A stretch of 64,000 bases of DNA. Origin: Maliponia aquimaris. Its GTDB lineage: Bacteria > Pseudomonadota > Alphaproteobacteria > Rhodobacterales > Rhodobacteraceae. The translations under genes and the position numbers were made by a program. The notes under the pieces are model-generated. The model was not told the origin of the DNA. It saw nothing but the letters and a program-made list of their open reading frames with translations, and did not search any database. The DNA lies in contig NZ_FXYF01000009.1 of the NCBI RefSeq assembly GCF_900184945.1, positions 94,174-158,173 of the forward strand, read 5' to 3'. Shown in pieces: positions 31,427 to 36,394 of the stretch (position 1 is the first letter of the stretch; every line of letters starts with the position of its first letter).

Positions 31427-32575
31427 TCAGTCGCGCAGCCGCGCGATGTCCTGCAGCAGGCCCTGCGTCCCGTTGTGCACGGTCAGGTGATCCACCTTCG
31501 CGGCGATGGCCTCGAGCGCCTCCAGTTCCTTGAGCCGCAGCATTACGGGGTTGTTCTCCATCACCTTGGCGGTGTTCAGAAGCGACCGCATCGCGTTCGT
31601 TTCCTCGCGCCGCAGGATCACGTTGGCCTCGGCCGCCTTTTCGGCCTCGACCACACGGTTCAGGATCTCGCGGATCTCGCCGGGCAGGATCACGTCCTTG
31701 AGGGCGATTTCCTGCAGTTCGATCCCGATCCGGGCCATCTCGGCCCGCAGGGTTTCCCCCGCCTCGACGTCCACGGCCCCCTTTTCGGCCAGCAGCTGGT
31801 CCAGCGTCAGCGCCCCCAGGCGCCGGCGGAAGACCAGTTGCACCGCGCGGTGCAGCGCCTCCTCGAAGTCGGTCACCGTGGTCACCGCAAGCTCGGGGTC
31901 GGTCACGCGGTAGACCGCCGTCAGGTTGACCCGGATCGTCACGCGGTCCCTGGTCAGGATCTCCTGCCCGGCGACCTCGTGCGCCCGCTGGCGCAGGTCC
32001 ACCAGCTTGACCGTCGCGGCGGGGCGCTGCGCCCAGAAGGCATGCACCCCCGGCGCCAGCCGGCCCGCCAGCACCCCGTCAAGGAACAGCATCCCGACCA
32101 TCCCGTCCGGCACCCGCAGCGTGGTCAGCGCCCGCGACAGGCCCGCCTGTTCCAGACGCCGCGCCAGCGTGGGCGCCACGCGGGGCTGCTCGGCCAGGTC
32201 GAAGCGTTCGACCGTGAAGGGCCCCGCGTCGGTCCAGTAGACCACCCGCTCTTCGGGAAAGAGCACCTCGACGGGCCGTCCGTCCCGCGCGACCACGGCG
32301 ACCTCGCCGGGTGCGGTGCGCACTTCGGTCAGGTGCCCCTCGGCCAGGTCGGGCCGGGTGCGGAACAGCGCCCGGTCGTAGGTCGAGGTGAAGCGGAGAC
32401 GCTCGATGCTGTGCAGTTCGCGCGTGCTGTCGTCGCGGCGGATCAAGTGGTCCCCGGGGCCAAGCAGCGCGTCGAACCGCCCGTTGACGAGGACGAGCAT
32501 GCGCTCGTTCTCGGACAGGGTGATGCGTTCGCGCCCGGCCAGGGTCCGGGCTATTCGGATCAGCACGTTGGTCAT
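31427..32575 (-). CDS. SPFH/band-7 (stomatin-like) domain protein with N-terminal extension
   Basis: C-terminal ~200 aa have SPFH core plus coiled-coil tail (QEILTRDRVTIRVNLTAVYRV ... IELQEIALKDVILPGEIREIL ... AEKAAEANVILRREETNA). No TM segment. Confidence 0.7.
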   Translation of the reverse strand: MTNVLIRIARTLAGRERITLSENERMLVLVNGRFDALLGPGDHLIRRDDSTRELHSIERLRFTSTYDRALFRTRPDLAEGHLTEVRTAPGEVAVVARDGRPVEVLFPEERVVYWTDAGPFTVERFDLAEQPRVAPTLARRLEQAGLSRALTTLRVPDGMVGMLFLDGVLAGRLAPGVHAFWAQRPAATVKLVDLRQRAHEVAGQEILTRDRVTIRVNLTAVYRVTDPELAVTTVTDFEEALHRAVQLVFRRRLGALTLDQLLAEKGAVDVEAGETLRAEMARIGIELQEIALKDVILPGEIREILNRVVEAEKAAEANVILRREETNAMRSLLNTAKVMENNPVMLRLKELEALEAIAAKVDHLTVHNGTQGLLQDIARLRD

Positions 32576-32962
32576 CTCATGTCTCCTTCTTCGTCGCGCC
32601 TATCGTCGTCGCAATGCGATGTTCCTTTGGTTGCAGAGGGTTGGAGGCAGCAATGCCCCGCAGGTGTAAAGGGGTGAGCCCGGAACGCCCCCCTGCCGCG
32701 ACCGCGGGCGGGAGACCGGCGAGAGGGGCGCGGAGCCCCGGCGCGCCACCGCCCCGAGGGGCGCGCAGCGGACCGGAACCCGGTGGAACCGTCATCCGGC
32801 GCTCCGGACCATGGCCGGAGCAGGCGAAGCCCGTGCCGCCCCCCGCCCGTTGCCGGACAAGGGTTGGCTGGGGCCCCTCCTGCGGAGGACGCCCCGGACC
32901 CGTGAAGTTTGGACCGCTTTCGCGGACCGGCGTTTAAGGCCGGCGCCCCCATGAGGGACGTT

Positions 32963-33037
32963 TGGAGCAAAAGGCAGGAGTCGAACCTGCTACACTTCGG
33001 TTAACAGCCGAATGCTCTTCCCATGAGCTACGTTTGC
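32963..33037 (-). tRNA. tRNA-Asn (anticodon GTT)
   Basis: RC: GCAAACG-TA-GCTC-ATGGGAAGA-GAGC-A-TTCGG-CTGTTAA-CCGAA-GTGT-AGCAG-GTTCGAC-TCCTGC... anticodon loop CT-GTT-AA; T-arm GCAGG/CCTGC; one C-U mismatch in acceptor stem. Confidence 0.8.
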
Positions 33038-33041
33038 GGTG

Positions 33042-33114
33042 TGACACTGGAGGGATTCGAACCCCCGACCGGCAGGCAAAGGCCCGCTGCTCTACCAGGC
33101 TGAGCTACAACGTC
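33042..33114 (-). ncRNA. tRNA-like sequence adjacent to tRNA-Asn (possible degenerate/pseudo-tRNA)
   Basis: Clear D-arm (TA-GCTC-AGCCTGGTA-GAGC), T-arm (GGGGG-TTCGAAT-CCCTC) and a pairing acceptor stem with two G-U wobbles. The anticodon arm (GCGGG-CCTTTGC-CTGCC) does not pair in any register I tried. Confidence 0.35.
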
Positions 33115-33360: not shown

Positions 33361-33966
33361 TCAAAGTGATTGCGGATTTGCGGAAATTGCCGGTTTTGAG
33401 GGCGGGTCCGGGACGCTGTCCGGCTCGGCCTCCGGCTCCGGTGGGCTCATGATCCGGAGTTCGGGGGCCGGGGTGACCCCGGGCAGGGCATCGCCCATCA
33501 GCTCGTCGATGAACAGGCTGAGCAGTTGCGGCCGCCCGCTGACCTGGGCCTTGCGGTAGATCGCGTTGGTCTGCGCCTTGACGGTGCCTTCGGAGGTGGA
33601 CCGCAGACCGGCGATCTCGGAGATCGACAGGCCCTTGATCGCGAACAGGGCGACATCCCGCTCTGCCGGGGTCAGCCGCCAGGCGGTGAACTTTTCGTCC
33701 AGCACCTGCATGAAGGCGCCGGACGCCACGCGCAGGCTGGCCTCGGCGCTGCGTTGGCGGCGCAGAGACTGGCGCAACAGGAGGCCGCTGGCCACGACGC
33801 CGAACAGCAGGCCCAGGATGGCGCCGACCTCGACCAGTTCGACCAGCGCCCAGGAGACCGGCTCAAACCGCAGCGCAAAGACCGAAGCGATGACTTCACG
33901 CAGCAGGAAGCCGCCGCACAACAGCTGCAAGGCCATGAGCAGGGCGAAGATCGCCGAAGCCTTCAC
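33361..33966 (-). CDS. Membrane-anchored LuxR/GerE-family HTH transcriptional regulator (2 N-terminal TM helices, Pro/Glu-rich C-terminal tail)
   Basis: Two hydrophobic helices (SAIFALLMALQLLCGGFLL; ALVELVEVGAILGLLFGVVASGLLL), then LuxR-type HTH (LTPAERDVALFAIKGLSISEIAGLRSTSEGTVKAQTNAIYRKAQV). Confidence 0.7.
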   Translation of the reverse strand: MKASAIFALLMALQLLCGGFLLREVIASVFALRFEPVSWALVELVEVGAILGLLFGVVASGLLLRQSLRRQRSAEASLRVASGAFMQVLDEKFTAWRLTPAERDVALFAIKGLSISEIAGLRSTSEGTVKAQTNAIYRKAQVSGRPQLLSLFIDELMGDALPGVTPAPELRIMSPPEPEAEPDSVPDPPSKPAISANPQSL

Positions 33967-33993
33967 CGGGCCGCTCCGATGCCGCGGCGACGG

Positions 33994-34395
33994 TCAGTCA
34001 TCGTCGTCATCCTTGTCATCGTCGTCCTTGTCGTCGTCCTTGTCTTCCTTGTCGTCGTCATCGTCGTCGTCGTCATCCTCGGGGTCATCCGCCTCGGGGG
34101 TGTCGTCTTTGCGGCGGTCGTCCCGGGTCCTGACCTTGTCGTCGCGGTCGTCGTCGTCGAGGTAGTCGCGCAGGATGGCCCCGGTGGAGGGGTTGAGGAT
34201 GATCTCGCGCCTGCCCCGTGACCCGCTGGCCGTGATGCGAATGCGGCCCAGGAAGGTGCGGGACACCGCGATCTGCCTGTAGCCTTCGCGCGAGAGTTGA
34301 CCGACGATCCGCTCCTCGACGGTTTCCGCACGGGCGGCAGGGACGCCTGCGACCAGGCAGGCCACCACGCCGCACAGCAGGCGTCTGCGCATCAT
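33994..34395 (-). CDS. Secreted PepSY-like protein with poly-Asp/Lys-Asp C-terminal tail
   Basis: Signal peptide (MMRRRLLCGVVACLVAGVPAARA), PepSY-like core (GYRQIAVSRTFLGRIRITASGSRGRREIILNPSTGAIL), then ~55 aa of D/E/K-rich sequence ending DDDDDDDDKEDKDDDKDDDDKDDDDD. Confidence 0.6.
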   Translation of the reverse strand: MMRRRLLCGVVACLVAGVPAARAETVEERIVGQLSREGYRQIAVSRTFLGRIRITASGSRGRREIILNPSTGAILRDYLDDDDRDDKVRTRDDRRKDDTPEADDPEDDDDDDDDDKEDKDDDKDDDDKDDDDD

Positions 34396-34446
34396 CTGCG
34401 CTGTCCTCCAAAAGGGCCGCGGACCGGGAGGTCCGCGGCGGTTGGC

Positions 34447-34881
34447 TCAGTCGTCATCGCCATCGTCGTCGTCGTCGTGATCGTCATCGTGATCGTCATC
34501 GTGATCGTCGTCGTGATCGTCGTCGTCCCGATCGTCGTGCATGTCGTCATCCTGATGATCATCGTCCCGGAGATCGTCATCGTCCAGAGAGTCTTCGGTC
34601 CGGTCGCGCGTCACCACGCCCGGTTGCGAGATGTCGCCGGGCTCGGCGGTTTCGACCTCCTGCTTGAGCAGGTCGCCATTGGTGCGGGACCAGACCTGTT
34701 CCAGTTTCTCTGTGCCGCGGATGGCCTCGACCTTGATCTGCGACGGGCCGCGCTTGATCTCGATGTGAGTATAGCCCGCGGCGGTCAGGTCCGAAACGAT
34801 CTGGTCCGTCAGAACATCGGCGGTGGCGATGGAAGCAGACAGCAGGCCCGCAAGGGCGGTGACAAGAAGAGTGGGTTTCAC
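34447..34881 (-). CDS. Secreted PepSY-like protein with poly-(Asp/His) C-terminal tail (paralogue of the preceding gene)
   Basis: Signal peptide (MKPTLLVTALAGLLSASIATA), PepSY-like core (AAGYTHIEIKRGPSQIKVEAIRGTEKLEQVWSRTNGDLL), tail DDDHQDDDMHDDRDDDDHDDDHDDDHDDDHDDDDDGDDD. Confidence 0.6.
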   Translation of the reverse strand: MKPTLLVTALAGLLSASIATADVLTDQIVSDLTAAGYTHIEIKRGPSQIKVEAIRGTEKLEQVWSRTNGDLLKQEVETAEPGDISQPGVVTRDRTEDSLDDDDLRDDDHQDDDMHDDRDDDDHDDDHDDDHDDDHDDDDDGDDD

Positions 34882-35149
34882 GGTAAATATCCTTTGGTCA
34901 GGGGTGGAACCGACGACACCGCACGAGGCTGTGTCGCCTGCCCTGTCCTTGCCGCGGGAACGGCGGCCGGGAAATGGACCCTCGGTTTATCCCGGCGCCG
35001 ATAAACCTGCGGACCACGCGCATAAACCTGGGTTTATGCGGGGTTTTGGGGGCCTTTTGCCCGGTTTCGGGGTCTCACCTGCGATGAAAAAGGCCCGGCG
35101 ATCCTATTGACCTGCCGGGCCCTGTTCGGGTCGATGCGCAGGGAACCCG

Positions 35150-36394
35150 TCAGCCGGCCTTGCGGCCCTCGGTACCGGACATGTCCACGCCGAGGTGCTT
35201 GGCCACGGTAAAGATGTCCTTGTCGCCCCGGCCGCAGAGATTCATGCAGATGATGTGATCCCTGGGCAGATCGGGCGCGATCTTGGCCACATGCGCGAGC
35301 GCATGGCTGGGCTCCAGCGCGGGGATGATGCCTTCGGTCTCGCAGCACAGCTGGAAGGCGGCCAGCGCCTCCTTGTCGGTGATCGAGACGTACTTGGCGC
35401 GGCCCACGTCGTGCAGCCAGCTGTGTTCCGGGCCGATGCCGGGATAGTCGAGCCCGGCGGAGATCGAAAAGCCCTCGAGGATCTGGCCGTCGTCGTCCTG
35501 AAGCAGGTAGGTGCGGTTGCCGTGCAGCACGCCGGGGCGGCCGCCGGTCAGCGAGGCGCAGTGTTCCATGCGGTCGTCGACACCCTTGCCGCCGGCCTCG
35601 ACGCCGATGATGTTCACCTCCTTGTCGTCGAGGAAGGGGTAGAACAGGCCCATGGCGTTGGAGCCGCCGCCGATCGCGGCGACGAGGGTGTCGGGGTTGC
35701 GGCCCTCGGCCTCCATCATCTGGACCTTGGTTTCCTTGCCGATGATCGACTGGAAGTCGCGCACCATGGCCGGGTAGGGGTGCGGGCCGGCGACGGTGCC
35801 GATGCAGTAGAAGGTGTCTCGCACGTTGGTCACCCAATCGCGCAGCGCGTCGTTCATCGCGTCCTTGAGCGTGCCGCGCCCCGACGTCACGGGGACCACC
35901 TCGGCGCCCAGCAGCTTCATCCGGAAGACGTTGGGCTGCTGCCGCTCAACATCGTGCGCGCCCATGTAAACCACGCATTTCAAACCGAATTTTGCGCAGA
36001 CGGTGGCGGTGGCGACGCCGTGCTGGCCGGCACCCGTCTCGGCGATGATGCGGGTCTTGCCCATGCGGCGGGCGAGGATGATCTGGCCGAGGACGTTGTT
36101 GATCTTGTGCGCGCCGGTGTGGTTGAGCTCGTCGCGCTTCATGTAGACCTTGGCGCCGCCGAGGCGGTCGGTCAGCCGTTCAGCAAAGTAGAGCGGGCTG
36201 GGGCGGCCGACGTAGTGCTTCCAGAGGAACTCCATCTCGTCCCAGAAGCTCTTGTCCGTCTTGGCTTTTTCGTATTCCGCCTCAAGCTCGAGGATCAGCG
36301 GCATGAGGGTTTCCGAGACGAAGCGCCCGCCGAATATGCCGAAGCGGCCCTTTTCGTCCGGGCCGGTCATGAAGCTGTTCACCAGGTCGTCCAT
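35150..36394 (-). CDS. trpB: Tryptophan synthase beta subunit
   Basis: PLP-lysine motif [17 protein letters not shown], full-length TrpB (414 aa). Confidence 0.9.

Follow-up and report, generated by a model that had tools for sequence, protein, structure and literature searches.

Three adjacent genes of the marine alphaproteobacterium Maliponia aquimaris raise the question of what two small exported proteins with extremely acidic tails have to do with a membrane-anchored transcription regulator of the LuxR/GerE type. The genes lie in a 64,000-nucleotide stretch of contig NZ_FXYF01000009.1 (positions 94,174 to 158,173), referred to here as the window, and encode, in the order of transcription, the exported proteins F3 and F2 followed by the regulator (Table 1). 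A preliminary description of this DNA reported three co-oriented open reading frames (ORFs) on the minus strand, and this layout is confirmed, with intergenic gaps of 51 bp between F3 and F2 and 27 bp between F2 and the regulator. It also viewed the trio as a self-contained module matching no system that it recognized. The first of these views has been strengthened by a conserved candidate operator found only upstream of the module, and the second agrees with literature searches, which extended to membrane-bound LuxR proteins in Rhodobacterales, PepSY proteins in roseobacters, and bacterial poly-Asp periplasmic proteins and gave no description of the module and no report of a bacterial poly-Asp-tailed PepSY protein. 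The explanation that we favor, tentatively and at somewhat short of an even chance, is that the three genes form an autoregulated module for envelope signalling with a wide distribution in Rhodobacterales. The trio probably senses the state of the cell envelope. Within this explanation, the gene content, conservation, synteny, and paralogy, the predicted fold and topology, the conserved composition of the tails, and the operator come from the analysis, and we infer the identity of the operator binder, the contact between F2 and the regulator, and the nature of the signal.

The regulator has 5718 homologs at E ≤ 1e-3, with 55-70% identical roseobacter proteins as the top matches, and a scan of one genome per species located its relatives at 588 loci or more. 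For comparison, 82 non-redundant Rhodobacterales loci were used, comprising the best 80 of these at least 588 loci and loci that were fetched separately. An F2 ortholog lies directly upstream of the regulator in 79/79 intact loci, the other three being cut by contig ends. The distance ranges from a few to about 115 bp from the longest ORF of the regulator, and the two ORFs overlap in a few loci. Of the 82 loci, 58 have an F3 ortholog, which carries one to three tandem domains, and 64 have trpB upstream on the same strand. The three genes thus co-occur in other genomes, as the preliminary description had required of such a module, and the gene order trpB-F3-F2-regulator is kept across many genera. 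No conserved metal transporter or metallo-regulator was found in the neighborhood of the compared loci.

A tRNA-Asn gene and a tRNA-like relic close to the trio, both of which are confirmed, had earlier been taken as a sign of horizontal acquisition. The cluster would then be an islet gained by horizontal transfer at a tRNA gene or, alternatively, a set of chance neighbors with neutral low-complexity expansions. The two tRNA genes do lie 250 bp downstream, and the tails of F2 and F3 are encoded by imperfect tandem repeats of 3, 12, and 15 bases, but either version is scarcely credible in view of the trpB synteny across many genera, a G+C content of the trio that equals the mean of the window, and an acidic tail composition that is kept in most orthologs even though their tails do not align in sequence. 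In Sagittula stellata and Roseovarius pacificus, a convergent DUF2237 gene directly follows the regulator. In Maliponia, a Band_7 gene lies between the regulator and the DUF2237 gene, and both tRNA genes are contained in this extra stretch (31427-33114), which points to an insertion downstream of the trio, relative to these two species, rather than of the trio itself. Horizontal transfer of the trio was rejected on the grounds of synteny and composition. Because the synteny with trpB and the order of the trio are conserved, the module is, as judged from the compared loci, ancestral and vertically inherited.

The assignment of the third gene to a membrane-anchored LuxR/GerE regulator has held up. 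Residues 98-150 match the Pfam GerE model (PF00196) with 24.1 bits, which passes the cut-off of 23.5, and most of the listed regulator orthologs carry the same domain. A structure model with a predicted local distance difference test score (pLDDT) of 83 places a helix at residues 2-30, a loop at 31-38, a continuous helix at 39-95, a helix-turn-helix (HTH) domain at 100-158 with helices at 100-110, 115-121, 126-140, and 145-158, and a disordered tail. Two membrane-length helices are thus modelled at the N-terminus, and the second transmembrane segment (TM2) and the linker form a single modelled helix that joins TM2 to the HTH. The periplasmic part of the regulator is a loop of about 8-20 residues; there is no periplasmic domain. 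The HTH probably lies in the cytoplasm, since an RQSLRRQR cluster follows the second hydrophobic helix, in line with the positive-inside rule. Across 22 orthologs, the residues Q14, P36, W39, E43, G48, A49, G52, L53, and G56 are invariant, as are the GAxxGLxxG motif of TM2 and the recognition helix T124-A140 (GTVKAQ..AIYRKA). The Pro/Glu-rich tail that had been described earlier is present in Maliponia but is not kept in the orthologs, and is lineage-specific. The best-scoring named family is the NCBIfam NF047608 'LIC13292 family transcriptional regulator' (residues 69-157, E 7e-15), of which the regulator, with 55.5 bits against a cut-off of 200, is not a member; the literature searches gave no mention of LIC13292. 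No kinase or receiver domain was found in the regulator (Pfam, NCBIfam) or among the neighboring genes.

A second conserved component is a DNA element of four half-sites in the spacer between trpB and the module. The half-sites CATAAACC and GGTTTATG were found by k-mer counting in these spacers. In the window, site 1 (CATAAACC-tg-GGTTTATG = CATAAACCTGGGTTTATG) is a perfect inverted repeat at 35021-35038, and site 2 (GGTTTAT-N10-ATAAACC) is an everted repeat at 34984-35007. The CATAAACCTGGGTTTATG palindrome has a single match in the window at up to 3 mismatches, where 0.02 are expected. Nearly every locus has the element, with the consensus TAAAC-N4-GTTTA followed by GTTTA-N12-TAAAC, ahead of its first module gene. 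The related loci amount to 638 kb and contain 76 matches to TAAAC-N4-GTTTA with at most one mismatch; 58 of these fall within 22 kb of trpB-module spacers, and nearly all others are just upstream of modules whose spacers were not delimited. The half-site offsets (0, +9, +30, and +47) are fixed in Marivita, Mameliella, Celeribacter, Thioclava, Roseivivax, and others. A further short and conserved element, AGGGTCC, adjoins the operator; in the window it is found just downstream of site 2 (34972-34979), and in Marivita-type loci it precedes site 1.

A perfect inverted repeat downstream of trpB could also represent a hairpin, of an RNA or a terminator, in the trpB-module spacer, and the complementarity of its flanks is slightly above that of shuffled controls at positions 3-6. 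The 5+5 core, however, is nearly uniform and shows no covariation across genera (by construction among matches with at most one mismatch), and the flanks of the palindrome pair in only 40-60% of the sites, which together favor a protein-binding site. The second, everted repeat of the same half-site at fixed spacing also speaks against a hairpin, as does the GC-rich hairpin with a T-run that trpB already has upstream of the element at its own 3' end (about 35113-35075, seen by eye and not reported by the terminator scan). RNA-hairpin identity was judged unlikely after the flank-complementarity test, and this explanation of the palindrome is highly improbable. If the trpB hairpin terminates trpB, which ends at 35150, then about 190 bp of upstream sequence belong to the trio alone. 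The most economical candidate for the binder of the operator is a GerE-type dimer, or a pair of dimers, of the regulator, because its invariant recognition helix is encoded in the same operon. A metagenome scan with GCATAAAC-N4-GTTTATGC was swamped by chance matches in low-GC sequences; 12 of its 19 high-GC matches belong to the module, and no other target emerged. Many contigs of human-gut metagenomes (L086-L205, about 44-46% G+C) likewise contain the 20-bp pattern GCATAAAC-N4-GTTTATGC, which may there be a conserved site of an unrelated gut organism or a product of chance.

The two small proteins have N-termini that resemble signal peptides, in agreement with the preliminary description. As read from the sequence, F3 begins with a Sec-type signal-peptide-like segment (MKPTLLVTALAGLLSASIATA/DV) and F2 with MMRRRLLCGVVACLVAGVPAARA/ET, which has the pattern MMRRRLL..ARA; both are small, stand-alone proteins with a hydrophobic N-terminal segment and an AxA-type cleavage site. 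A twin-arginine-like RRxFL motif, defined by a regular expression only, is present in the F2 of the window (RRRLL), in 54 of 79 F2 orthologs, and in 2 of 60 F3 orthologs, the latter having been recovered from the fetched loci with a purpose-built hidden Markov model (HMM). The folded core of F2 and F3 comprises about 55-60 amino acids, not the roughly 80 that had been assigned to it, and is predicted to consist of a helix and four strands. A BLASTP comparison of F2 with F3 gives no alignment. A profile of F2 orthologs, in turn, matches F3 proteins at E values of 1e-5 to 1e-18, and the cores align over about 57 columns with L, GY, I, A, E, and G positions in common; for these reasons, F2 and F3 are, at the profile level, old and divergent paralogs. 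The paralogy that had been proposed for the pair therefore stands, whereas the proposed resemblance to PepSY is seen only below the threshold. Neither protein of the window matches a Pfam PepSY model even at E ≤ 1 (PF03413 and PF13670; gathering score not reached). In the family as a whole, PF13670 (PepSY_2) is matched by 17 of 32 single cores from the two subfamilies (best E 4.4e-5) and PF03413 by 6 of 32, and among full-length members 8 of 28 match PF13670 and 5 of 28 match PF03413. In a one-by-one Pfam scan of the 32 cores, no family other than the PepSY types recurs, and the UniRef name for F2 is 'PepSY domain-containing'. F2 and F3 are accordingly best described as divergent PepSY_2-like relatives and not as threshold-passing members. 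Searches of PDB sequences (phmmer and profile) gave only spurious short matches to the uS3 KH domain.

The core family is large, as a HMMER search of all 1.84 billion cluster representatives with the core profile gave 2024 clusters at E ≤ 1e-3 and 1318 at E ≤ 1e-10. The cores have the highly conserved pattern RTxLGRxRI...REIxxNPxTGxILRD, and the charge of the core separates the two subfamilies: F2 cores have a median charge of +4 and 84% are positive, and F3 cores have a median of -2 and 85% are negative. A segment after the core, E.ER....DT.PGVE..R.R.F, is conserved in F3 proteins and absent from F2. Two or three tandem PepSY-like domains precede the acidic tail in the F3 of Marivita and its relatives (loci L008, L011, L013, L016, L019, L020, L023, and others), and one representative (P0179, 393 amino acids) has four.

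The tails are as extreme as had been described. In the window, the F2 tail contains 34 Asp in 55 residues with a net charge of -26, and the F3 tail contains 36 Asp and 6 His in 68 residues with a net charge of -35; Asp thus makes up 53-62% of these tails, which are the sole stretches with at least 60% Asp plus Glu over 30 residues in six frames of the window. Among the orthologs, F2 tails (n = 79) have a median length of 71 amino acids, a median Asp content of 47%, and a median net charge of -29, and F3 tails (n = 60) have medians of 88 amino acids, 56% Asp, and -45. The share of GAT in the F3 tail is high (14 of 36 Asp codons, where trpB has 4 of 29 and the Band_7 gene has 1 of 21) because of the repeat unit GAC-GAC-GAT-CAC, which encodes DDDH. 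The acidic tail is not universal. The F2 tail of Sagittula is rich in Gly, Ser, Asn, and Lys instead of Asp, and orthologs with non-acidic tails have near-neutral cores and no F3 (core charge against tail charge, Spearman -0.25, p = 0.026, with no correction for phylogeny). Many metagenomic representatives of the family (e.g., P0184, P0185, P0186, and P0217) carry tails of the type TTTMTT... or RRRPRR..., which are the GAC/GAT repeat read in another frame, owing either to assembly or sequencing frameshifts in the repeat or to real frameshift variants; some of these fuse F3 and F2 into one ORF. Eight members of the F2 family weakly match the C-terminal end of Pfam DUF2076 (best E 0.004), probably as a compositional match to another Asp/Gly-rich tail.

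A mechanism can be proposed from these components. The regulator would sit in the inner membrane with a cytoplasmic N-terminus, a two-helix hairpin, and a short periplasmic loop, and would probably dimerize through the glycine zipper of TM2, while the invariant recognition helix of its GerE-type HTH would contact the TAAAC/GTTTA operator ahead of the operon that encodes it. Since the regulator itself is devoid of a periplasmic domain, perception of the signal would fall to the exported PepSY-like proteins. F2, which is always present, is encoded immediately upstream, and has a basic core, could dock on the regulator at its acidic periplasmic face in the way that DbfQ docks on DbfS. F3, with an acidic core, one to three domains, and a presence in about 70% of the loci, could modulate F2 or compete with it. 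The poly-Asp tails would make this interaction dependent on ionic conditions or divalent cations in the periplasm (Ca2+/Mg2+, or polycations); alternatively, they may serve in electrostatic self-inhibition of the basic F2 core. A signalling module is favored because the regulator lacks a periplasmic domain, F2 is its constant neighbor, and PepSY proteins are known to control adjacent sensors.

The main rival takes F2 and F3 to be effectors, that is, periplasmic polyanions that buffer or sequester divalent cations (seawater Ca2+/Mg2+) or set the Donnan or osmotic balance, with the regulator itself sensing the membrane or ionic state via intramembrane polar residues and adjusting their production. 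The conserved extreme composition of the tails, the invariant polar residues Q14 and E43 in the transmembrane hairpin, the possession of an operator by the operon, and the marine habit of the host lineage all agree with this proposal, which leaves unexplained the high conservation of the core, the opposition of basic F2 and acidic F3 cores, and the lineages in which the core is kept but the acidic tail is replaced. On balance it is rather unlikely to be correct.

The preliminary description had attached special weight to the His-containing tail of F3, and F2 and F3 could be binders, chaperones, or stores of trace metals (Zn, Ni, Fe, lanthanides, or uranyl) like LanP and UipA, with the His tail adding affinity for Zn or Ni. 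These two proteins provide precedents for acidic, metal-binding PepSY proteins (PMC9988556), and the F3 tail has a weak compositional match to the zinc-uptake protein ZrgA (NCBIfam NF047873; 14.8 bits, E 0.016). This score, however, is far under the cut-off of 185 and concerns the low-complexity tail only, so F3 is not a member. His exceeds 8% in just 8 of 60 F3 tails and in 0 of 79 F2 tails, and (DDDR)n repeats are frequent and commoner than the His-rich type; His in the tails is not conserved, and the emphasis on it is not supported. Basic F2 cores and the absence of a conserved metal transporter or metallo-regulator from the compared neighborhoods also count against a trace-metal function, which is improbable.

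Several points weigh against the signalling module that we favor. The contact of F2 and F3 with the regulator is proposed by likeness to DbfQ-DbfS, and the small proteins could be a regulated output instead of a sensor. Their PepSY membership is sub-threshold only, and fold searches with F2 and F3 did not discriminate. A different transcription factor could be the one that uses the operator, and neither the window nor the metagenome scan revealed a regulon member outside the operon. Finally, 7 of 79 F2 tails are not Asp-rich, so a polyanion is not strictly required. A more specific version of the signalling module is a lineage-wide three-part envelope sensor in which the poly-Asp tails would sense Ca2+/Mg2+, ionic strength, or polycations electrostatically. 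In this version, the basic F2 core would alternate between a polyanion, either its own or that of F3, and the acidic periplasmic face of the regulator, and the four-half-site operator would provide the readout. Taken with all of its parts, this version is unlikely.

The features of the locus are collected in Table 1. The sequences of F2 and the regulator are identical to the Maliponia aquimaris records WP_094022122.1 ('hypothetical protein') and WP_306456461.1, respectively. The exact F3 sequence was not found in a collection of 15 billion proteins in which F2 and the regulator of the same genome are present, and a word-indexed homolog search with the F3 core returned one relative and no F3 self-hit; F3 may be unannotated or otherwise annotated in the public Maliponia record. 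A sigma-70 promoter scan of the locus found none, a terminator scan gave nothing useful, and Rfam identified no RNA element at the locus besides the two tRNAs. The tRNA-like gene is 4 bp from tRNA-Asn and scores 49.3 bits with the Rfam tRNA model (gathering 29), and ARAGORN assigns no anticodon to it. By eye, it has an anticodon loop CCUUUGC (with C at position 33) and a largely mismatched acceptor stem, and it looks like a decayed tRNA, possibly tRNA-Lys(UUU). Two long plus-strand ORFs that are rich in V/I/L runs (33526-34221 and 34297-35004) are the reverse-complement reading of the Asp-codon repeats and not genes.

Table 1. Positions in the window of the module, its candidate operator, and the nearby tRNA genes.
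Feature	Residues	Window positions	Strand	Source
F3, exported PepSY_2-like protein	144 aa	34447-34881	minus	ORF list and sequence
F3 signal peptide (predicted)	aa 1-21	34819-34881	minus	
F3 acidic core	aa 22-76	34654-34818	minus	
F3 Asp/His tail	aa 77-144	34450-34653	minus	
F2, exported PepSY_2-like protein	133 aa	33994-34395	minus	ORF list and sequence
F2 RRxLL-type signal peptide (predicted)	aa 1-23	34327-34395	minus	
F2 basic core	aa 24-78	34162-34326	minus	
F2 Asp/Lys tail	aa 79-133	33997-34161	minus	
Membrane-anchored LuxR/GerE-type regulator	201 aa	33361-33966	minus	
Regulator transmembrane hairpin	roughly aa 2-62	33781-33963	minus	
Regulator HTH	aa 98-158	33493-33675	minus	
Regulator Pro/Glu tail, non-conserved	aa 159-201	33364-33492	minus	
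Candidate operator, four half-sites		34984-35038	no strand	
tRNA-Asn		32963-33037		
Degenerate tRNA-like gene		33041-33114	minus	

Roseobacter-group bacteria are among the most abundant heterotrophs of coastal seas and algae, and the module occupies a fixed chromosomal position in at least several hundred species of this group, where its parts are annotated merely as 'hypothetical protein' and 'helix-turn-helix transcriptional regulator'. If the signalling module is real, it would extend the periplasmic control of membrane sensors by PepSY proteins from two-component systems to a membrane-tethered one-component LuxR regulator, assign a function to some of the most extreme bacterial poly-Asp tracts, and provide a ready-made operator-regulator pair for experiments. 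Electrostatic sensing by the tails, if true, would be new both as a mode of one-component transmembrane signalling and as a biological use of homopolymeric Asp. The small size of the system, with three genes and a single DNA element of 55 bp, allows direct testing.

The closest comparison among known systems is with PepSY proteins that act on two-component systems. In Vibrio cholerae, DbfQ, a PepSY protein of the periplasm, binds the DbfS sensor domain with a dissociation constant of 30 nM, and in P. aeruginosa two PepSY genes (PA2658/PA2659) precede bqsRS (PMC12714742). As in DbfQ-DbfRS and PA2658/PA2659-BqsRS, one or two small signal-peptide PepSY-type genes lie directly upstream of a membrane transducer and are co-oriented with it, here in all 79 intact loci. 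The operon likewise appears to be self-feeding, and, as in P. aeruginosa, two paralogous PepSY genes stand in tandem. Unlike these systems, the trio has no histidine kinase, receiver, or periplasmic sensor domain, and its transducer is a one-component, membrane-tethered GerE/LuxR regulator. F2 and F3 also differ from the PepSY proteins of these systems in their 40-140-residue poly-Asp tails and in cores that match PepSY_2 below the threshold.

Acidic PepSY proteins offer a second comparison. LanP (lanpepsy) is a periplasmic, Asp/Glu-rich protein with two PepSY domains that binds lanthanides, and uranyl and Fe3+ binding has been reported for UipA (PMC9988556). F2 and F3 resemble these proteins in being exported and strongly negative, and some F3 orthologs share their tandem PepSY domains. 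In LanP and UipA, however, the carboxylates line folded domains, whereas F2 and F3 carry their charge in a disordered tail, and the core of F2 is basic.

In ToxR-ToxS and TcpP-TcpH, the activity of the regulator is modulated by a periplasmic partner that is encoded alongside. CadC is likewise a membrane-integrated one-component transcription regulator (PMC7888679, PMC6320335). As in ToxR, TcpP, and CadC, the DNA-binding domain of the regulator described here is anchored to the inner membrane, from where it has to locate its operator. Those proteins consist of an N-terminal OmpR-type winged helix, one transmembrane helix, and a C-terminal periplasmic domain, but in this regulator the order is reversed, with an N-terminal two-helix hairpin, a C-terminal GerE-type HTH, and no periplasmic domain. 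The module thus resembles both the PepSY-plus-two-component modules and the ToxR/CadC-type regulators with their partners, and lacks the defining features of both.

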